Part shown: piece by piece, positions 20,270 to 56,508 of the stretch
How positions within the stretch are numbered: the first letter of the stretch is position 1
Layout: the number at the start of each line of letters is the position of its first letter
Source: Candidatus Methanoxibalbensis ujae
GTDB taxonomy: Archaea > Halobacteriota > Syntropharchaeia > Alkanophagales > Methanospirareceae
Length of the DNA: 64,000 nucleotides
NCBI GenBank assembly: GCA_026134085.1
Contig: JAOQIN010000001.1
Coordinates: forward strand, 21,344 to 85,343
Direction of reading: 5' to 3'
Translations under genes and position numbers: made by a program
The notes under the pieces: generated by a model
Seen by the model: the letters and a program-made list of their open reading frames with translations, nothing else
Databases searched by the model: none
Told to the model about the DNA's origin: nothing

Positions 20270-22156
20270 ATGTGTGGGATAATAGGGTATATAGGCGAGG
20301 AGAATGCTGTTTATTTTCTGCTAAAAGGTCTTAAAAACCTTGAATATCGTGGTTACGATTCTGCGGGCATAGCTGTTCTGTCTGATGTGATAAAATGGAA
20401 GAAGGTTGCTGGCAGGGTTGAGGAACTGTGCAGCCGTGTGAACCCGAGAGAAATGAGCGGGCGCATAGGTATAGCTCACACGAGATGGGCGACGCACGGC
20501 GCTGTTACTGAGAGGAATGCGCACCCGCATTTTGATTGCACATTCAGTATAGCTGTTGTGCACAATGGCATCATAGAGAACCACCGGCATTTAAAGGAGA
20601 TTCTGCGTGAGAAGGGGCATAAGTTCAGCAGTGACACGGATTCTGAGGTGATTGCGCATCTGATAGAGGATGCGCTTCTTTTAAACAGGGATTTCGTGAG
20701 CGCGTGCATGCATGCTTTCTCATCGCTTGAAGGAAGTTTCGCCGCAATTGTGATGAAAGAGGGAGAGCATAAAATAGTTGGTGTGAGAAAGGACTCTCCG
20801 CTCGTCATCGGTGTCTCCGCGAGGGGCATATTCCTCGCATCCGACATACCTTCGTTTCTTGAGTGGACAAATCGCGTGATATATCTGCACAACTACGACA
20901 TGGTCGTCGTTGATGCTGATCCGGCACCGGATGCGTGCGGTGATGTGCGCAATGTGCGCGATATGTGCGATGTGCGCGATGTTAACAATCATTGCGGTGC
21001 CAGTCATTGCGGTGCGCTCAGTGCGCTGACGGAGAAGCATGCGAGCATCCGGATATATAATCTCAATGAGGGACTCGTTCAAAGACCTGTTGATTCTGTG
21101 GAGGTGGACATAGAACAGGCGAAAAAAGGAGAATTCAGGCATTTCATGCTGAAGGAGATAACAGAACAGGCGGACACAATAAAAAAAGCGATACAACAGG
21201 ATGAGGAAACTGTGAAGAATGTGATTGATGCCATAAAAAACGCGTTCGGTATATTTTTCATTGGATGTGGCTCAAGTTATCACGCATGTCTCGCCGGCAG
21301 TTATCTGTTTTCTCGCATTGCAAAGACGCATGTTAACGCAGTTCTCGCATCTGAATTTGAGAATTATGAGCATTTCCTCACAGATAAAACGCTTGTTTTT
21401 GCTGTATCGCAGTCTGGAGAGACGGCAGATGTGCTTGATGCTGTGCGTGTTGCGAGAGACAGGGGGAGCAGGGTGATAAGCATTGTGAATATGATGGGAT
21501 GCTCGCTCACGAGGGAAAGCGATGAATGCCTGTTGATGAACGCGGGTCCTGAGATATGTGTTCTCTCAACAAAAACATACACATCGCAGGTGACTTTGAT
21601 GGCGATGCTCGCATATGCACTCGCTGGAAATTATGATGATTTTGTATCTGAGGTCAAGCGATTGTATCTTGACATTTACAATCTCACCTCAAGAACTATG
21701 AGGGAGCGTCTGTGTGAAGTGGCGAAGATGCTCGCTGACAAAGAGCATATATATCTGATAGGCAGAGGTCTGCAGTATGCCACAGCGCTTGAGGCTGCTC
21801 TCAAAATAAAGGAGGTCTCATACATACATGCGGAGGCGTTTGCAGGTGGCGAGCTGAAACACGGACCCCTCGCTTTGATAGATAAGGGAACTCCCTGCAT
21901 AGTTTTCGTTTCAAAGGACAACGCCTCAAAAATAATCTCAAACGCGGAGGAAGTAAGAGCGAGGGGAGGATACATAATTGGAATATCTTCAGTGAATTAT
22001 GACTTTGACTGCTGGATAAAAGTGCCGGACAGTGATATGCTCAACCCCGTTGTTCAGATAATACCCGTCCAGATACTCGCTTATCAACTTGCACTGCTGC
22101 GCGGACTCGACCCGGATAAGCCGAGAAACCTCGCCAAAAGCGTGACAGTTACCTGA
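20270..22156 (+). CDS. glmS: Glutamine--fructose-6-phosphate aminotransferase GlmS with in-frame repeat insert
   Basis: It starts MCGIIGYIG with the N-terminal nucleophile Cys, has two SIS domains, and is 628 aa. The insert DACGDVRNVRDMCDVRDVNNHCGASHCGA is encoded by DNA tandem repeats at about 20930-21010. Confidence 0.9.
   Translation: MCGIIGYIGEENAVYFLLKGLKNLEYRGYDSAGIAVLSDVIKWKKVAGRVEELCSRVNPREMSGRIGIAHTRWATHGAVTERNAHPHFDCTFSIAVVHNGIIENHRHLKEILREKGHKFSSDTDSEVIAHLIEDALLLNRDFVSACMHAFSSLEGSFAAIVMKEGEHKIVGVRKDSPLVIGVSARGIFLASDIPSFLEWTNRVIYLHNYDMVVVDADPAPDACGDVRNVRDMCDVRDVNNHCGASHCGALSALTEKHASIRIYNLNEGLVQRPVDSVEVDIEQAKKGEFRHFMLKEITEQADTIKKAIQQDEETVKNVIDAIKNAFGIFFIGCGSSYHACLAGSYLFSRIAKTHVNAVLASEFENYEHFLTDKTLVFAVSQSGETADVLDAVRVARDRGSRVISIVNMMGCSLTRESDECLLMNAGPEICVLSTKTYTSQVTLMAMLAYALAGNYDDFVSEVKRLYLDIYNLTSRTMRERLCEVAKMLADKEHIYLIGRGLQYATALEAALKIKEVSYIHAEAFAGGELKHGPLALIDKGTPCIVFVSKDNASKIISNAEEVRARGGYIIGISSVNYDFDCWIKVPDSDMLNPVVQIIPVQILAYQLALLRGLDPDKPRNLAKSVTVT
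20930..21012 (+). repeat. In-frame tandem repeats inside glmS (gtgcgcaatgtgcgcgatatgtgcgatgtgcgcgatgtt; aatcattgcggtgccagtcattgcggtgcg)
   Basis: The repeats are visible in the DNA and maintain the reading frame. Confidence 0.7.
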
Positions 22157-23728: not shown

Positions 23729-25678
23729 ATGAAATATCGTGTGGTATTGCTTATCGCCGCGGTGATCACGTTCTCCGCAACCGCAATCGCAACAATGAGC
23801 GGCAGTTCAGTGGAGCCGATGAGTCATTCTTCAGACTCAACTTTCAATCCAAGCACTGTGGGAGCGGATATGACTGTAAACATTGCATTGAACGTATCCA
23901 ACAGCGGTAATGACAGTATAACTGTGGTCTATCTCTACGAGTCCTATCCTTATGATAACTTCGATAATTTGAGCTATCTGACACCACCGGATGGCTGGAC
24001 AGCCTCAAAGGCAGTTTCGGGAGGTCAGGAGTATATAAAATGGGAGAGCACAAATGAATCGCAGTATAATATACCTGCGGAAGAAAGTTTGCAGTTCAGC
24101 TTCTCGGTGAAAACGCCTGCTTCAGGAGGCACATACACATGGAGTGTCAGGACATATGATAATGCAGGAGGCTATTTTGACGACACTGTTGGTCTTGAGG
24201 TGGATGCCACTCCTCCGCAGATCGGCAATATAACGCCGAACAAATCAGCGCCTGTTTACACGAAATATTGCGAAGAGATATGGGTGAACTTCACAACGGA
24301 CAGCTCTGCGGAGAACAACCCATATAACATCACGATATACAGAGATGGGGACATTGCGAACATCACTTCAGGAACAAATATAACAGAGGATGCCGCAGCA
24401 CACACGGACGGCAGATGGAGCTTCCTCATACACATAGACACGAATGAAAGCTGCAACTACACCGTGCGTGTTACGGTTGAGGATGAGTATGGAAACAGGA
24501 ACACCTCTGAAGAAACAGATGCGGTTATCATAGACAATGAGGCGCCCTCAGTGGACATAACATCGCCGACGGAATCGTCACCATACATATTGCCCGTAAC
24601 GGAGGACAATGTCTCAGTCAGCTTTGATGTGTCTGATAACAAGCCATTCGCACTGCAGTTTTACAACATTTCAGTTGGCGATGTCTGGTGCAACGGCACA
24701 CTTCCATCGCAGAACACCTCAATGAATGTCTCATGCGACATATCATCACTGTCGGAGGGCTGGCATGACATCACCGTATATGTGAGCGACAAATCTGGAA
24801 ATGAAGCAAGCGATACTGAGGTCAATGCAGTTTTGGTTGATAAAACAGCGCCCTCGCAGGTCACAGATCTGACAGTGGAATACAATGAGACCTCAGGATG
24901 TATTGACCTGAGCTGGAGTGCTGCAAATGATGCTCTGAGCGGCGTTGCATATTATCGTATATACAGAAATGACACAAAATGCTCAAACCTACCAGGAGAC
25001 CTTGTTGCTGTTGTGGATGCCAGCGATACATCGTGGACAGATGAAGCCTTCCTTGAGGATGGGCAGACATATTATTATGTGGTGACTGCGGTTGACAGTG
25101 CCGGAAACGAGAACAAATCAATAACAGGCGAGAACTGCGGCAGCGCTACATACACAGCGAAATATTACTCAATATCACTGACCAAAGGATGGAACCTCAT
25201 ATCACTGCCGCTTATTCCTGAAAACGAGTCCATAGACAGCGTTCTCGCAGATTGCATGGATGAGATAGACAGTGTGCATGCATATGATGCCCGGAACGGG
25301 ACATGGCTTACCTGGAGACCCTACTTTGGCGGCACGCTTACGACTATGACAACAGGAAAGGGATACTGGATATTTATGGATGATGCCTGCACATTCAGAT
25401 ACAGAGGCTATTACCTGAATCCTGGAGCGCTGCCACCGTCATATGAGGTTGTGGAGGGATGGAACCTCATCGGATTCCACTCATTGCGCACAAATGTCAC
25501 ACCGGCGCAATATCTTGAAGGGGTCCGCTACACAGAACCTCTCTACGGTTATGAGGATGGCAGATGGATACTGTATTGCAATGGTCTATACTGCGACAGG
25601 AATTTCATGGATATAGGCAAGGGCTACTGGGTTTATGTCACCCAACCGGGCACAATCGTGCCGCACGAAGAGCGGTGA
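23729..25678 (+). CDS. Secreted/cell-surface protein with signal peptide and fibronectin-III-like domain
   Basis: The N-terminus MKYRVVLLIAAVITFSATAIA is a signal peptide. A GGAGG RBS lies about 10 nt upstream of this ATG. It has an FN3-like segment (YYRIYRND...DTSWTDEAFLEDGQTYYYVVTAVDSAGNE) and many N-x-S/T sequons. Confidence 0.55.
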   Translation: MKYRVVLLIAAVITFSATAIATMSGSSVEPMSHSSDSTFNPSTVGADMTVNIALNVSNSGNDSITVVYLYESYPYDNFDNLSYLTPPDGWTASKAVSGGQEYIKWESTNESQYNIPAEESLQFSFSVKTPASGGTYTWSVRTYDNAGGYFDDTVGLEVDATPPQIGNITPNKSAPVYTKYCEEIWVNFTTDSSAENNPYNITIYRDGDIANITSGTNITEDAAAHTDGRWSFLIHIDTNESCNYTVRVTVEDEYGNRNTSEETDAVIIDNEAPSVDITSPTESSPYILPVTEDNVSVSFDVSDNKPFALQFYNISVGDVWCNGTLPSQNTSMNVSCDISSLSEGWHDITVYVSDKSGNEASDTEVNAVLVDKTAPSQVTDLTVEYNETSGCIDLSWSAANDALSGVAYYRIYRNDTKCSNLPGDLVAVVDASDTSWTDEAFLEDGQTYYYVVTAVDSAGNENKSITGENCGSATYTAKYYSISLTKGWNLISLPLIPENESIDSVLADCMDEIDSVHAYDARNGTWLTWRPYFGGTLTTMTTGKGYWIFMDDACTFRYRGYYLNPGALPPSYEVVEGWNLIGFHSLRTNVTPAQYLEGVRYTEPLYGYEDGRWILYCNGLYCDRNFMDIGKGYWVYVTQPGTIVPHEER

Positions 25679-25689
25679 ATGTGTATGAT

Positions 25690-25745
25690 TTGATTTCCTT
25701 TTTTTCTTTTTTGTTTTTGTTTTTTTTCTTTTTTGGGCTCGTGTA
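25690..25745 (+). terminator. Oligo-T terminator-like tract after the secreted protein gene
   Basis: The tract reads tttcctttttttcttttttgtttttgttttttttcttttttggg. Confidence 0.4.
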
Positions 25746-25800
25746 GGTGTCGGTGTCGGTGAGCTGGCGTGAAGAAATGAAGCGGAGGAGGTGTATATGA

Positions 25801-26868
25801 ATGAGATTGTATGTATTTGCAGCAGTTCTGTTATTTACCTGTGCAGTGTGCGGACAGCCATCACCACCTTGTGATGCAGTTTTCTGGGGAAATGTCACGA
25901 TAAACGGCAGTATCGCCCCTAATGGAACAATCGCTTCGGCATGGATAAATAATGTGATGATGGACAGTTGCGAAACGGAGAATTGGAAGGGGACCGCGTA
26001 TGGAAAGGTGTATAATTACAAGCTGCATGTTGGAGGAAAAAGCGGCGACATCGTTGAGTTCAAGATATACAACGCGACTGTTCACACAGACACGCTTGAC
26101 TGTGGAGAGACAACAAATCTCGACCTGCATCTCTGGGATGAGGATGTGGATGAAAGCGCACAGATCTCAATAAACTACACAGAAGGCAAAGCCAACCTGA
26201 CAGTTGAGTGGACAGCAGGACGTGACACGACCGGCATCTCGCATTATGAATTGTGGCGCAGATATGAGAGCGAAAATTTCACACTCGTCGCAAGGTTGAA
26301 CGCAACAGATAGGGAATACACAGATACAAACCTCCTCTCAGGTAACTACACATATAAACTCTGCACTGTTGACTTCGTGGGCAACAAGAACTGCACAGAG
26401 GCAAATGTAACCGTCGTTGGTGGAGTGGAGGGAGGAAAAATTATCGGGAGCGTGACATACACATGCAATAACACGGGCATTCCGAATGTGAGTGTGTCGC
26501 TTATGAGAGACGGGGAGATAATAAGAGACACGAAAACGAACGAAACGGGACAGTTCTTATTTGAGGACCTTAGTGAGGGCAATTACTCAATAAAAGTGTC
26601 AAAACCTCACTTCTTTGATAATGAAACTGATGTCTCCTTGATCGCAGGAGATGAATCCGACATATCATTGAGGATGTGGATCAAAGGAGATCTCAACAAC
26701 AACGGCAGAAGCGCTGATGCAGGTGATGTATCCCTCATGCTCAAGGGCTCAGTTCTCATTATAGAGCCGGACTGGAGATATGACCTGAACAACAACGGAA
26801 AACTCGCAGATGCAGGTGATGTCCTCCTGATCCTGAAGGCTTCCGTCGGTTATATAGAGCTGATATAA
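25801..26868 (+). CDS. Secreted protein with FN3 domain, carboxypeptidase-regulatory/Cna-B-like domain, and two C-terminal dockerin-like repeats
   Basis: It has a signal peptide (MRLYVFAAVLLFTCAVCG). It has an FN3 domain (YELWRRYE...GNYTYKLCTVDFVGNKN) and a CarbopepD_reg-like segment (GSVTYTCNNTGIPNVSVSLMRDGEII...TGQFLFEDLSEGNYSIKVSKPHF). The dockerin repeats are DLNNNGRSADAGDV and DLNNNGKLADAGDV. Confidence 0.55.
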   Translation: MRLYVFAAVLLFTCAVCGQPSPPCDAVFWGNVTINGSIAPNGTIASAWINNVMMDSCETENWKGTAYGKVYNYKLHVGGKSGDIVEFKIYNATVHTDTLDCGETTNLDLHLWDEDVDESAQISINYTEGKANLTVEWTAGRDTTGISHYELWRRYESENFTLVARLNATDREYTDTNLLSGNYTYKLCTVDFVGNKNCTEANVTVVGGVEGGKIIGSVTYTCNNTGIPNVSVSLMRDGEIIRDTKTNETGQFLFEDLSEGNYSIKVSKPHFFDNETDVSLIAGDESDISLRMWIKGDLNNNGRSADAGDVSLMLKGSVLIIEPDWRYDLNNNGKLADAGDVLLILKASVGYIELI

Positions 26869-26995: not shown

Positions 26996-27554
26996 CAGCT
27001 AAAAGCAAAAAACGGATACTGACCAAAGGGACTGAAACAGGATTAGAGAATGCTTCACGGAGATGCCGTATTCGTGGGCGCGTCGGCTTGAAAAAATAGA
27101 TGGCTTAAAAAATCTGAAGTTGTGAGACTGGACGCTCTTGACATATCACGAAGTTTTACAATGTGCTGGAGCATGCAGAATGGGTTAAAGTGCAACATCC
27201 GTGTTCTCATATTCGGACCAGCAGTGCGAGTTCCTGTTCAGCTCATATTAACGCGCGAGGTGCTGCGGAAGCAACTGCTCCACGCTCGTTCGAGTGCTGT
27301 ATTTCTTCTGAGAGGAGTGAGACTTTTTTCGCACAGACTTTTTTCGCACAAAAAGAAAACGTGCAAAAAGAAAAATCAGTCAGCAAAATCATGCCTTTAA
27401 CCTCCAGTTTTGCGAAATCCTCTTTTTTCATACCCGGCCCCCCACCGTCTTTTGTCGTTCATAATTTTTATGAAAAATTCTCAAATAGTTTTTTTATATC
27501 TCTCGCTTTTAGAGAGCAGGGAGAAACATCAGTGATAAAAAAAAGGGAGGAATT

Positions 27555-28649
27555 ATGGCAGACAAAAGAAGTTTCCCGGTATGCTGCTATTGTGGTGCGT
27601 GTGCTGCGTTCATAGATTTCAAGAAGTATAAGGAGGAGGAAGTGGTGTTTGACAAGGGCTGTGGCGGCATGGTGTCAAAAGGCTTCTGTTTCAGCTTCTG
27701 TCCTCGCTCATTCGCAGTTTGCCGTTTATGTGAGGGGGAGTGCCCGAGGATGGACGTATGTGATTTCAGCCCTCTCCCCTCCCGGCATGAAGAGCGAGTT
27801 CTTGGATACTATAAAGAAATGATATGTGCAAGGGCAGCGGACGGGAGGACGAGAGAGGTGGGACAGGATGGAAGTGCCGTAACTGCAATGCTATGTGAGG
27901 CGTTGAGAAGTGGATTTATAGATGCTGCCGTTGTCGCTGTGCGGACAGAGGACTGGAAAGCCGAACCTTTCATCGCCACCACACCGGAAGAGGTTTTGCG
28001 CGGCGGAGGTTCAAAATACACAGCATGCCCTTCTGTTCTTGGTGTATGGGAGGCGATAGACCGCGGCTATGAAAATATCGCAATGGTCGGCACGGGCTGT
28101 AATATAGAGGCGGTGAGAAGACTTCAGGCGTTGCATGACCCTGCTTTAGAGCTTGACAGAGTGAAAGTCCTGATCGGGCTTTTCTGCACTGAGGCTTTCT
28201 GGCACCGTGATCTGGTGGTGTTCCTCGCTGAACGGGGAATAGATATCAAAGAGGTGGAGAGGTTTTATGTTTCAAAGGGGAGATTCATTGTGGTTACAAA
28301 GGACAGAGAGCTCAGTATTCCCACCGAAGAACTGGAATCCTGCGTGCGTGCGACATGCAAAATATGTGAGGATTTCACCGCACAGCTTGCGGATGTTTCA
28401 GCAGGCTCTTCCGGTTCGCCGGAAGGATACACTTCATTGATAATAAGGACAAGAGCTGGAGAGGAGCTCGTAAGTGTCTCAAAAAAGGCAATAGAAACGA
28501 AGAAACTGGATGATGCCGGTATAAAAAAGATAGAAAGGCTTGCTTTTAATAAGAAGATGAGGAATTACGGCAGGATACTGGATCAGATGGGGATCTGTTC
28601 CGCGTGCTTAACCAATCCGTATTCTTTTACGTTGCAAACAGGTGATTGA
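27555..28649 (+). CDS. FrhB/FpoF-family protein (coenzyme F420 hydrogenase beta-subunit-like FAD/F420-binding Fe-S protein)
   Basis: It has an N-terminal Cys cluster (CCYCGACAAF...CGG...CPRSFAVCRLCEGECP) and the family-typical central region (GQDGSAVTAMLCEAL...GSKYTACPSVL...GTGCNIEA...LIGLFCTEAF). It overlaps the downstream GltS-domain gene by 8 nt. Confidence 0.6.
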   Translation: MADKRSFPVCCYCGACAAFIDFKKYKEEEVVFDKGCGGMVSKGFCFSFCPRSFAVCRLCEGECPRMDVCDFSPLPSRHEERVLGYYKEMICARAADGRTREVGQDGSAVTAMLCEALRSGFIDAAVVAVRTEDWKAEPFIATTPEEVLRGGGSKYTACPSVLGVWEAIDRGYENIAMVGTGCNIEAVRRLQALHDPALELDRVKVLIGLFCTEAFWHRDLVVFLAERGIDIKEVERFYVSKGRFIVVTKDRELSIPTEELESCVRATCKICEDFTAQLADVSAGSSGSPEGYTSLIIRTRAGEELVSVSKKAIETKKLDDAGIKKIERLAFNKKMRNYGRILDQMGICSACLTNPYSFTLQTGD

Positions 28650-30255
28650 AATGGCAGATATATATGCGAATGCGAGGTCCACCACGGGAACATCCGTGAG
28701 AAGGAGAGATGTGAATGCGCTGAGCGGGATGTGTCCGATATGCGTGAAGGAGTGCGAGGTGCTCTGCGAAATTGGAAAGAGTGCGTTCAGGGGAAGAGAA
28801 GTATTGTATCCGGAGCCAGAGCAATTTGGATGGAGTACTGCTGCGTCGAACAAGGATTACGGACTCGATTGGTCCGACTTCAACATACTGTCAAGGTTGC
28901 GTGGCGCCGAGGGGATAGAGGAGAACCCTGATGTCGCACTTTTCCACAATGTGAACATTGAATCAAATATAGGAGGAATTCCGCTGAAAATACCTGTTGC
29001 AATAGGAGCATTCGGCTCAACAGATGTCGCAAAGAACAACTGGGAAGCGCTTGCGATTGGCGCAGCTCTCTCAGGAATAATCATTATCATAGGAGAGAAT
29101 GTATGTGGTGTCGACAGAAATTCAGTTTTCACTGATGGAAAGGTTGAGAGATCGCCTGAAATGGAGCGCAGGGTGAAATTATTCAGGGACTATTGGGATG
29201 GAAAATATGGAGATGTGGCAGTTCAGACAAATGTGGAGGATCAGAGATTTGGTGTTGACGAATATGTGGTGTCAAAGCTTGAGGTCAACATTGTTGAGCG
29301 TAAATGGGGACAGGGTGCAAAGGCAATAGGCGGGGAAATAAGAATTTCATCACTTGAAAGGGCGATTGAACTGAAGAAGCGTGGCTATTTAGTGTTGCCC
29401 GATCCTGAGGACCCTGTTGTGCAGAATGCATTCAGAGAAGGTCTTTTCAGGACATTTGAGAGGCATAGCAGGGTTGGATTTCCGAAAGAGGATTTTGTTG
29501 AAGATGTTGAGTGGCTGCGCAGCATAGGTGCGAAGTATGTGACAATAAAAACAGGTGCTTACCGCCCTGTTGATGTCGCATGGACAATGAAAATGGCATC
29601 AGAAGCCAGGGTTGACTACATCACATTTGACGGCGCAGGCGGCGGCACTGGAATGTCACCGGTTCCCATGATGAATGAGATGAGCACTCCCACAGTATAT
29701 TTAGAAGCGCAAATACTGAAATGCGCTCGCATTCTTGATAAAGCAGGGAGATATGTGCCTGATATAAGCATGGCGGGCGGTTTCATAAACGAAACGCAGA
29801 TATTCAAGGCGATAGCACTCAGTAATTTCAACGGAAACAACGGCAGAGGACCATATGTGAAAACGATAACAATGGCAAGATCCCCTCTGACGGCAGCGAT
29901 GAAGTCCCTTTACTTCTGTGAACTCGCGGAGAAGGGAAAATTGCCGCGAAATTTCGCATCCCTGTACGGAAATTCGCCTGAGAGGTTCTTCATAGCTGCT
30001 GAAGCGCTCAAAGCAAAATACGGAGATAAAGTGGGCGGAGAAATACCATGGTCGGCTGTCGGCGTTTACACCTATCTCTATGAACGCATAGGAATAGGAT
30101 TGAAACAGCTGCTCGCAGGAACAAGGAAATTCAAGCTTGAACTCATAGACAGAAGCGACATCGCAGCACTGACCAGAATAGCATCAGAAGTCACAGAAAT
30201 ACCGATGATACATGAGGTAGAAGCAGATCTGTTTGAAGAAATATTGCTGTCATAG
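28642..30255 (+). CDS. Glutamate synthase large-subunit FMN-binding domain protein (archaeal split GltB domain 2-like)
   Basis: It has FDGAGGGTGMSP (the glutamate synthase FMN/TIM-barrel signature GxDGGTGA) and an upstream Cys motif CPICVKECEVLCE. The size is 537 aa. Confidence 0.6.
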   Translation: MIEMADIYANARSTTGTSVRRRDVNALSGMCPICVKECEVLCEIGKSAFRGREVLYPEPEQFGWSTAASNKDYGLDWSDFNILSRLRGAEGIEENPDVALFHNVNIESNIGGIPLKIPVAIGAFGSTDVAKNNWEALAIGAALSGIIIIIGENVCGVDRNSVFTDGKVERSPEMERRVKLFRDYWDGKYGDVAVQTNVEDQRFGVDEYVVSKLEVNIVERKWGQGAKAIGGEIRISSLERAIELKKRGYLVLPDPEDPVVQNAFREGLFRTFERHSRVGFPKEDFVEDVEWLRSIGAKYVTIKTGAYRPVDVAWTMKMASEARVDYITFDGAGGGTGMSPVPMMNEMSTPTVYLEAQILKCARILDKAGRYVPDISMAGGFINETQIFKAIALSNFNGNNGRGPYVKTITMARSPLTAAMKSLYFCELAEKGKLPRNFASLYGNSPERFFIAAEALKAKYGDKVGGEIPWSAVGVYTYLYERIGIGLKQLLAGTRKFKLELIDRSDIAALTRIASEVTEIPMIHEVEADLFEEILLS

Positions 30256-30420
30256 GCTCTTCTCCATTTTCTTCTTTCTTTTTTGTTTCTTTTTGTTTTG
30301 TTTTGTTTTGTTTTTTCTTTTTTTTTTTGTTCTGTTCTGTTTCTTTGTCTTGTTTTATTTCGTCCTGTCCTGTTTCGTTTTGATTCGGTGAATTTGATTC
30401 GGTGAATAATTCAGTAAAAT
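30256..30420. repeat. Microsatellite region ((TTTTG)n, (GTTCT)n, (GTCCT)n, gattcggtgaat x2) in a convergent intergenic region
   Basis: Repeats are visible. The region probably also serves as a bidirectional oligo-T termination region. Confidence 0.65.
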
Positions 30421-30472
30421 TCAAACGGCAAATCAGCATGAGCACCCCGCCTACAGAATTGGAAGAACAGCG

Positions 30473-56419: not shown

Positions 56420-56508
56420 TGCGCCGGCCGGGACTCGAACCCGGGTTAGAGGCTTTTTGCCCCGCAGAGGATGGCAAGCCTCTGTGATAACCACTACACT
56501 ACCGGCGC
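56420..56508 (-). tRNA. tRNA gene with anticodon-loop intron, probably tRNA-Gly(GCC)
   Basis: The reverse complement reads GCGCCGG-TA-GTG-AGTGGTTAT-CAC-A-GAGGC-TTGCCA-[intron ~17 nt TCCTCTGCGGGGCAAAA]-A-GCCTC-TAAC-CCGGG-TTCGAGT-CCCGG-CCGGCGC-A. The acceptor and T arms are perfect. Its 88-nt length implies an intron at the canonical 37/38 position. Confidence 0.6.

Follow-up and report, generated by a model that had tools for sequence, protein, structure and literature searches.

Kaster et al. (2011; PMC3087415) put forward F420-dependent glutamate synthases, and Susanti and Mukhopadhyay (2012; PMC3448663) two types of such an enzyme, FGltS(I) and FGltS(II). More recently, Chadwick et al. (2022, PLoS Biol; PMC9012536) described "FrhB10", which is specific to anaerobic methanotrophic archaea (ANME) and clustered with glutamate synthase (GltS) subunits, as what may be a third group. 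Their Fig 16 data sheet sets the columns "FrhB10 (FgltS(III)-alpha)" and "GltB2" side by side, lists the pair in ANME-1 GoMg1 (FrhB10 C5S32_08090, GltB2 C5S32_08095) and shows that Ca. Syntrophoarchaeum butanivorans also carries it. Papers of 2024 and 2026 still call F420-dependent GltS "putative". Here we analyze two adjacent genes in a stretch of 64,000 nucleotides (the window) from contig JAOQIN010000001.1 of Candidatus Methanoxibalbensis ujae. One encodes an FrhB-like protein (protein 1) and the other a GltS-like protein (protein 2), which we call the core protein. We conclude, with a probability of roughly 60%, that the two proteins form a heteromeric oxidoreductase that makes glutamate at the expense of F420H2, the enzyme putatively named FGltS(III). 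An earlier note, made from the letters of this DNA, had stated that FrhB-GltS associations have been proposed as F420-dependent glutamate synthases; they are indeed in the literature, as FrhB10 [FGltS(III)-alpha] plus GltB2 (PMC9012536), and the gene pair is thus already published as a genomic prediction.

The two open reading frames (ORFs) are co-directional on the forward strand and appear in the ORF list of the window at 27555..28649 (364 amino acids, ATG start) and 28642..30255 (537 amino acids, GTG start). Both are real genes, since each protein has hundreds of close homologues. The earlier note had the genes overlapping by 8 nt. That is true of the longest ORF, which is taken from the first possible start, GTG 28642; the probable start is ATG 28651, giving a core gene at 28651..30255 (+) and a protein of 534 amino acids. 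In the homologue alignment the core-family orthologues begin M(A/T)D(I/V)YANARS, which corresponds to this ATG, and for that reason we prefer a 1-nt gap to the overlap. The stop codon of frhB reads TGA at 28647-28649, and ANME-1 loci likewise have a layout of stop, one nucleotide and start (7999/8001). Most likely, frhB and the core gene are tightly coupled across a 1-nt gap, the ribosome-binding site of the second gene, an AGGTGAT Shine-Dalgarno-like motif by our reading of the sequence (28640..28646, +), lying within the end of frhB.

Protein 1 (27555..28649, +) is a predicted F420-binding flavo-iron-sulfur protein of the FrhB family. Its matches to the Pfam profiles FrhB_FdhB_N (PF04422, 3e-23) and FrhB_FdhB_C (PF04432, 1.5e-38) are both full-length. 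The two signatures that the earlier note quoted are present, GQDGSAVTAMLCEAL at residues 103-117 (27861-27905) and GTGCNIEA at residues 179-186 (28089-28112), so that its family assignment is borne out. In NCBIfam the protein falls short of the equivalog cut-off for frhB (TIGR03289, 195 bits against 331.5) and of the FpoF cut-off (138 bits against 475). Judged by sequence, it is a paralogue distinct from Frh-type FrhB and from FpoF, and an orthologue of "FrhB10 / FGltS(III)-alpha"; we tie it to the published FrhB10 because its neighbor matches the listed GltB2. In an alignment of 15 sequences (A3), C182, C268 and C271 are invariant, and C211 (in GLFC) is kept in 11, being D or S in four close ANME-1-type members. 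From knowledge of the Frh and Fsr structures, we take these four cysteines to be the ligands of the FrhB [4Fe-4S] cluster.

Two further features of protein 1 lie at its two ends. Its N terminus carries a Cys-rich extension (27582..27761, +), presumably the site of one or more extra Fe-S clusters, whose number and type we infer. This extension has 11 cysteines in residues 10-69 (C10, C11, C13, C16, C36, C45, C49, which is followed by proline, C56, C59, C63 and C69), of which C10, C13, C16, C45 and C49, together with P50, are invariant in alignment A3. Its second motif reads CxxCxxxCP and is deleted in one homologue (P0309). The extension aligns with the N terminus of FpoF (NCBIfam FpoF, residues 6-341). 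No Pfam Fer4 match was found in protein 1, whereas a clear Fer4 dicluster domain is present in the fusion protein P0188 described below. At the other end, a C-terminal CSAC (CxxC) tail (residues 348-351; 28596..28607, +) is specific to the FrhB clade that is paired with the core: the CSAC...TNP tail is kept in all paired-clade FrhB down to 47% identity and is missing in outgroups at 31-34% identity and in the fusion protein. It may form an interface or bind an additional metal.

Protein 2 is the "GltB2" of FGltS(III) and, on the evidence of its sequence, a homologue, though only a remote one, of the FMN (flavin mononucleotide)-binding synthase domain of GltS. Its sole Pfam family is Glu_synthase (PF01645, 3.8e-12, 46.5 bits against a cut-off of 20.4), and this match is confined to residues 282-393, corresponding to about 110 of the 369 profile positions (188-296). 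All three profiles named in the earlier note (FrhB_FdhB_N, FrhB_FdhB_C and PF01645) thus find a match in this pair. NCBIfam gives nothing for protein 2, and phmmer finds no match to it in the PDB. The gap to GltS was bridged through the canonical archaeal domain 2 of locus L018, which shares its operon with a core-family gene and matches solved GltS at 1e-66; the A. brasilense GltS numbering was taken from the same search. Aligned with this canonical domain 2 by hhalign, the protein 2 family gives 98.3% probability and an E value of 2e-14 over 301 columns, covering the whole barrel, at about 16-24% identity between protein 2 and the canonical GltS synthase domain. An AlphaFold2 model of protein 2 (mean pLDDT 82.6, pTM 0.87) has the fold of an FMN-type TIM barrel. 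Protein 2 belongs to a deeply divergent paralogous family, distinct from canonical GltS domain 2. The earlier note's "GltS domain 2" protein therefore stands as a homologue carrying FDGAGGGTGMSP, but not as a canonical member, there being no PDB match to protein 2 itself and GltS being reached only at E ~0.1.

The motifs expected of the FMN and active sites are recognizable. In the hhalign columns, the candidate active-site motifs GENV (residues 151-154), VQTNVED (194-200) and KWGQGAKAIGGE (221-232), together spanning 29092..29337 (+), align so that GENV corresponds to GltS GEGG, VQTN..RFGV to IKQ..RFGV and KWGQGAK to the QGAKPGxGG loop. The predicted FMN-binding motifs FDGAGGGTGMSP (residues 329-340; 29626-29661) and AGGFINETQIFKAIALS lie in 29626..29823 (+), where the Pfam-aligned region, hhalign and conservation agree: DGAGGGTGMSP falls on SGxxGGTGASP, and AGGF...KAIAL on DGGL...AAMLGA. 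Across 134 full-length core-family members, QGAK is found in 130 and GE[ND]V in 127; overall the GE(N), QGAK and DGxxGGTG motifs are kept in 127-130 of them.

Elsewhere the family departs from GltS. Near the N terminus is CPICVKECEVLC (C31, C34, C38 and C42; 28732..28767, +), which presumably binds an Fe-S cluster that replaces the 3Fe-4S site of GltS. This C31-x2-C34-x3-C38-x3-C42 motif is nearly invariant (alignment A1) and occurs in 127 of the 134 full-length members; in the fusion protein it reads CxxCxxCxxC. The canonical domain 2 sequences, when aligned, do keep their 3Fe-4S cysteines. In addition, a family-specific PDPEDP...FERHSR segment (29398..29472, +) replaces the "ISPPPHHDIYSIEDL" region of GltS: where GltS has the substrate loop "R...ISPPPHHDIYS", the core family has RGY-x3-PDPEDP...FERHSR, with P253, P255 and F272 invariant and R274 and H275 nearly so. 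Of the FMN and Fe-S residues that the earlier note took as a test of GltS activity, the FMN and active-site motifs are there and the canonical 3Fe-4S cysteines are missing.

By its sequences the core family is compact and strongly conserved. A search of 1.84 billion cluster representatives gave 797 matches at E<=1e-3. One protein, P0001 from a "Methanosarcinales archaeon" metagenome-assembled genome (MAG), is 100% identical to the window core protein over 534 amino acids; identity is 87% to Ca. Alkanophaga, 79-87% to many Methanophagales (ANME-1) proteins and 82% to C5S32_08095 (P0034), the GltB2 listed for GoMg1. Members at 62-74% identity come from Methanocaldococcus fervens, Archaeoglobus, Hadarchaeota, Bathyarchaeia, Baldr-, Odin- and Altiarchaeota, Korarchaeota-type Thermoproteota and Anaerolineae. 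A second core-protein subfamily, about 50% identical and with the motif DAAGGGTGMSPWRMMNEWGIPP, stands in tandem with the main type in locus L070 (4147-5742), and a 123-amino-acid fragment of it is found near the operon in locus L003 (9499-9870). Our literature search found no paper on this divergent family itself.

How firmly is FrhB attached to the core? The order frhB then core is kept in Alkanophaga, in locus L003 and in Methanophagales (ANME-1) contigs, where FrhB forms an ANME-1/Alkanophaga clade of at least 67% identity, and also in a second tier in which FrhB is 48-52% and the core 62-64% identical; the next FrhB relatives, at 31-32% identity, belong to Hdr-type clusters. Furthermore, three independent assemblies contain an 800-amino-acid single-chain fusion (P0188) of a Fer4 dicluster, FrhB_N, FrhB_C and the core domain. 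A physical complex of FrhB and the core is well supported by these comparisons, since the pairing persists at about 50% FrhB identity and a natural fusion exists, and the functional complex that the earlier note had read from the tight coupling gains support accordingly. In the fusion locus (L092, 204-8403), the fusion gene lies downstream of pylC, pylD, two genes for Glu/Leu/Phe/Val dehydrogenase (GDH) and a gene for an 81-amino-acid ferredoxin. Another apparent fusion, P0312 (FrhB_C plus Glu_synthase, 540 amino acids), was discarded as chimeric, since it occurs only once, on a contig of 1.8 kb, with FrhB sequence running into the core at about residue 145.

The FrhB module itself is found in ANME-1, Alkanophaga, Syntrophoarchaeum and some other Halobacteriota, and the core family without FrhB is widespread, in Bathyarchaeia, Hadarchaeota, Archaeoglobi and Anaerolineae. 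FrhB lies upstream of the core in only 2 of 67 assessable species-level loci, a count from a pattern-seeded scan that missed most ANME-1 genomes and so shows absence in other phyla rather than an unbiased frequency. The co-conservation with FrhB looked for in the earlier note consequently holds within the lineage but not generally. Because 65 of the 67 loci, in many lineages, have no upstream FrhB, the comparison indicates that FrhB is a lineage-specific electron-input module on a core subunit that is used elsewhere without it.

The genes around the core point towards nitrogen metabolism. GDH genes stand within three genes of the core in 25 of 80 loci, in many cases flanking it on either side, and they adjoin the fusion as well; GuaA-B is a neighbor in 9 of the 80, GlnA in 6 and HisF in 4, and a gene of the OCD/alanine-dehydrogenase family recurs as well. 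In ANME-1 the order is GlnA..FrhB-core-GuaAB-HisF. Archaeoglobus profundus (L082, 6293-11284) has isocitrate dehydrogenase, a 210-amino-acid Fno-like F420_oxidored protein, the core and GlnA; the core there has no FrhB, and electrons may enter instead by a route linked to F420/NADPH through the Fno-like protein. Translational coupling of GMP synthase subunit B to the core is common and spans three phyla. Because these neighbors handle glutamate, glutamine, ammonia or 2-oxoglutarate, the neighborhood supports a glutamate-forming role for the family.

Some details of these loci deserve mention in their own right. In ANME-1-type archaea, Hadarchaeota and Altiarchaeota (L003, 7598-8557; L016, L060 and L065; L084, 9601-10560), the next gene after the core is that for GMP synthase subunit B (an ATP-pyrophosphatase), the two overlapping by up to 8 nt or lying up to 2 nt apart, and in ANME-1 HisF comes next. 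Both GMP synthase subunit B and HisF are ammonia-accepting "synthase" halves of glutamine amidotransferases, encoded here without the glutaminase halves. In Bathyarchaeia (loci L012, L019-L022, L026, L027, L031-L034, L036, L040, L048 and L064), the core lies between two GDH paralogues. The downstream one is of normal length, about 416-434 amino acids; the upstream one, on the opposite strand, has 587-620 amino acids, including an N-terminal extension of about 200 amino acids without a Pfam match. A KaiC-like ATPase gene is directly upstream of the core in these loci.

The model that we favor for FGltS(III), in which cofactor content, electron path, substrate and direction are all predicted, while family memberships, conserved motifs, gene coupling, co-conservation, the fusion and the nitrogen-related neighborhood are observed, is as follows. 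F420H2 would pass a hydride to the flavin adenine dinucleotide (FAD) of the FrhB-like subunit, from which single electrons would move to the FrhB [4Fe-4S] cluster, then to the extra cluster or clusters of the Cys-rich N terminus, and on to the Cys4 site at the N terminus of the core protein. That site would reduce the core FMN, and the FMN would in turn reduce 2-iminoglutarate, formed from 2-oxoglutarate and ammonia, to L-glutamate. In other archaea, where the core lacks FrhB, it is presumably driven by ferredoxin. The reaction should proceed only towards glutamate because of the redox potentials involved, about -0.12 to -0.14 V for 2-oxoglutarate plus NH4+/glutamate and about -0.34 V for F420. 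The latter value is also quoted in PMC9012536. No amidotransferase or GXGXG gene is linked to the pair, and either ammonia or glutamine may be the nitrogen donor. Within our model the odds are slightly better than even for free ammonia, which we favor because no glutaminase is linked, and slightly worse than even for glutamine supplied through an unlinked GltB1-type glutaminase.

A broader version of this idea is that the core represents a widespread archaeal class of glutaminase-independent reductive aminase, making glutamate from 2-oxoglutarate and free ammonia with low-potential donors. Bathyarchaeia, Hadarchaeota and Archaeoglobi would use ferredoxin for this, whereas ANME-1, Alkanophaga and Syntrophoarchaeum would use F420H2 by way of FrhB10. 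We offer this only tentatively. If true, such an enzyme would exceed NAD(P)H-dependent GDH in driving force by about 200 mV at no ATP cost, and would let energy-starved anaerobes assimilate ammonia with high affinity while sparing them the ATP bill of the cycle of glutamine synthetase (GS) and glutamine:2-oxoglutarate aminotransferase (GOGAT).

Several results weigh against FGltS(III) as we have described it. In the PDB, the core-family profile finds only de novo TIM barrels and, at E ~0.1, GltS. Foldseek against the PDB confirms the FMN TIM barrel of the protein 2 model, but its matches to IDI-2, lactate monooxygenase and glycolate oxidase rank as high as those to GltS. In the region of protein 2 aligned with the canonical 3Fe-4S cysteines (Cx5Cx4C, or archaeal CxxCxxC...C) there is no conserved cysteine, and the hhalign register is unreliable for protein 2 across the Arg/Ser region that binds 2-oxoglutarate. 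The window contains no gene for an amidotransferase (GltB1) or GXGXG (GltB3) subunit save for the unrelated GlmS; more widely, of 91 loci examined, one has GltB1 linked to the core and four have GltB3. Archaeoglobus sulfaticallidus has a complete canonical Fd-Pyr_redox-GltB1-GltB2-GltB3 operon and a core-family gene elsewhere in its genome, and in the operon of locus L018 a core-family gene stands beside a full canonical GltS. Because of this coexistence, the core family, which its sequences suggest to be a paralogue working alongside canonical GltS, may have a role that differs from GOGAT. Finally, F420-dependent GltS of any type is biochemically unproven.

These points bear differently on the alternatives. 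The FrhB-core complex might be a classical glutamine-dependent GOGAT, to which an unlinked GltB1-type amidotransferase, and perhaps a GXGXG subunit, docks and channels ammonia. GlnA stands beside the core or its operon in ANME-1, A. profundus and the 6 of 80 loci counted above, the core clusters with GltS domains 1 and 3 in loci L018 and L073, stand-alone domain 1 genes occur in lineages that have the core family, and expression of GS and GltS genes has been reported for ANME (PMC5947290). We nevertheless regard this arrangement as doubtful, given how rarely domains 1 and 3 are linked to the core and that, where they do accompany it, a canonical domain 2 is present as their partner already. 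Domain 1 genes are unlisted in the Alkanophaga and Chadwick supplements, and a "Methanosarcinales archaeon" contig with GlnA-dom1-dom2-dom3 could not be placed in the ANME-1 lineage. The "split form" of glutamate synthase that the earlier note proposed is weakened in the same way, domains 1 and 3 being unlinked in the window and in 76 of 80 loci and glutamine dependence being unproven. The main rival is that the complex is a real F420H2-dependent FMN/Fe-S reductase but acts on another substrate, such as a different 2-oxo acid, or an imine or enoate of amino-acid or purine metabolism. The remoteness of the GltS similarity, the equally good fold matches to other FMN TIM-barrel enzymes, the family's own PDPEDP...FERHSR segment at the site of the GltS substrate loop, the coexistence with canonical GltS and the repeated coupling to GMP synthase subunit B all fit such a reductase. 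Yet the motifs most specific to GltS are kept, namely GE(N/G), the QGAK loop and DGxxGGTG(A/M)SP; PF01645 is the only Pfam family matched; and the neighbors GDH, GlnA and isocitrate dehydrogenase each act on glutamate, 2-oxoglutarate or ammonia. Taken together, these make another substrate unlikely.

Two more radical departures carry far less weight with us. If the adjacency of FrhB and the core were incidental, the core would use ferredoxin and the FrhB paralogue would serve another partner, as might be imagined from the many core-family loci without FrhB. Against this stand the ribosome-binding site within frhB and the 1-nt gap (or 8-nt overlap), the retention of the pairing as FrhB diverges to 48% identity, the natural fusion, and the confinement of the C-terminal FrhB tail to the paired clade, and we consider a chance arrangement very improbable. 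It is just as hard to believe that the complex runs oxidatively, reducing F420 with electrons from glutamate. FrhB modules are reversible in Frh, and the core adjoins GDH in peptide-fermenting lineages, but glutamate oxidation with F420 would be strongly endergonic by the redox potentials given above. Moreover, ANME-1 are autotroph-like assimilators (PMC5947290).

Within the window, frhB and the core gene are a self-contained two-gene unit with unrelated flanks. Upstream lie genes for GlmS, an archaeosortase and Ig-like surface proteins; downstream are those for a convergent class I/II aminotransferase, a radical SAM/SPASM protein and a ferredoxin. The aminotransferase synteny is common to the window and Alkanophaga. 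By sequence reading, a GGGAGGA Shine-Dalgarno-like motif (27544..27550, +) lies 4 nt before the frhB ATG, and a TATA-box-like TTTTTATAT (27491..27499, +), about 55 nt 5' of frhB, is a candidate archaeal promoter. A T-rich tract of about 100 nt (30262..30370, +), 3' of the core stop, is probably an archaeal terminator region that the convergent aminotransferase gene uses as well. A scan for sigma-70 promoters and intrinsic terminators is uninformative for archaeal DNA. The single NrpR-type nitrogen operator (GGAA-N6-TTCC) in the window, at 2546, was rejected, being at chance level and far from the operon. A second long T-rich (A-rich on the other strand) low-complexity intergenic tract at 25640-25800 is probably an archaeal terminator region too; such tracts create spurious Lys-rich ORFs, for example 25638-25898 (-) and 30191-30445 (-).

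Other parts of the window can be described briefly. GlmS (20270-22156, +) has a GATase and two SIS domains, with an apparent Asp/Cys-rich insertion of about 45 amino acids (…DADPAPDACGDVRNVRDMCDVRDVNNHCGASHCGAL…) between the amidotransferase and SIS domains. An 89-nt tRNA gene at 56420-56508 (-) scores 57.8 bits with Rfam tRNA; ARAGORN calls it "tRNA-???" with a 4-base anticodon (tgcc), and it may contain an intron or be unusual for an archaeal tRNA in some other way. Between about 38000 and 44000, G+C is 0.35-0.37, against about 0.46 elsewhere, with strongly positive GC skew, and this segment may be a horizontally acquired island.

F420-dependent GltS has been invoked since 2011-2012 to link the F420H2 pool of methanogens and of alkane- and methane-oxidizing archaea to nitrogen assimilation. 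To our knowledge, no such enzyme has been purified so far. No version put forward is simpler than the pair in the window, which consists of one FrhB-like and one FMN protein and for which nature offers a single-chain fusion; it is therefore well suited to a first biochemical and structural study. The true reaction of the core, whether ammonia- or glutamine-dependent, would change the reconstruction of nitrogen assimilation for many uncultured archaeal phyla.

Compared with its closest described relative, the FGltS(III) pair of FrhB10 and GltB2 in ANME-1 and Syntrophoarchaeum, the window has the same gene pair in the same order, with a core 82% identical to C5S32_08095. There is no essential difference, and the window holds an orthologous copy in an Alkanophaga-like MAG. 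Chadwick et al. (PMC9012536) name the cluster only; the divergence of its GltB2, the missing canonical Fe-S site, the spread of the core without FrhB and the fusion are unreported there. What the present analysis adds, then, is a distinct and widespread core family with a different Fe-S motif, FrhB as its lineage-specific add-on and a natural fusion, together with the lack of a linked glutaminase and a start-codon assignment that turns the overlap into a 1-nt gap. FGltS(I) and FGltS(II) share the concept of an F420H2 dehydrogenase subunit of the FrhB/Fsr-N type feeding a glutamate synthase, but their FrhB clades differ from that of the window, FrhB13, FrhB15 and FrhB10 being separate columns in Chadwick's table. 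The FrhB-like protein of Methanothermobacter is "subunit 4" of glutamate synthase (PMC3087415), which we read as an addition to the three canonical subunits; in the window, by contrast, only a divergent domain-2-like protein is linked to FrhB.

With canonical GltS (A. brasilense 1EA0/2VDC, Synechocystis 1OFD/1LLW, and the archaeal split GltB1/GltB2/GltB3), the core shares the FMN TIM barrel, the aligned GE(G/N), QGAK-loop, DGxxGGTGxSP and GG(x)7-K/A-ALGA-type motifs, and the nitrogen-assimilation context. It differs in having an N-terminal CxxCxxxCxxxC instead of the C-terminal 3Fe-4S cysteine motif, in its family-specific PDPEDP/FERHSR insertion and in having no linked amidotransferase or GXGXG partner; unlike archaeal GltB2, it also lacks the N-terminal 2x[4Fe-4S] ferredoxin domain. 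Finally, Fsr and FpoF use an FrhB-like F420H2-oxidizing module with additional N-terminal Fe-S to feed a catalytic reductase, an arrangement that protein 1, with its presumed extra Fe-S, would resemble, and the P0188 protein is an Fsr-like fused version of the FrhB-core system. The acceptor here, however, is an FMN TIM barrel rather than a sirohaem sulfite reductase or a membrane complex.

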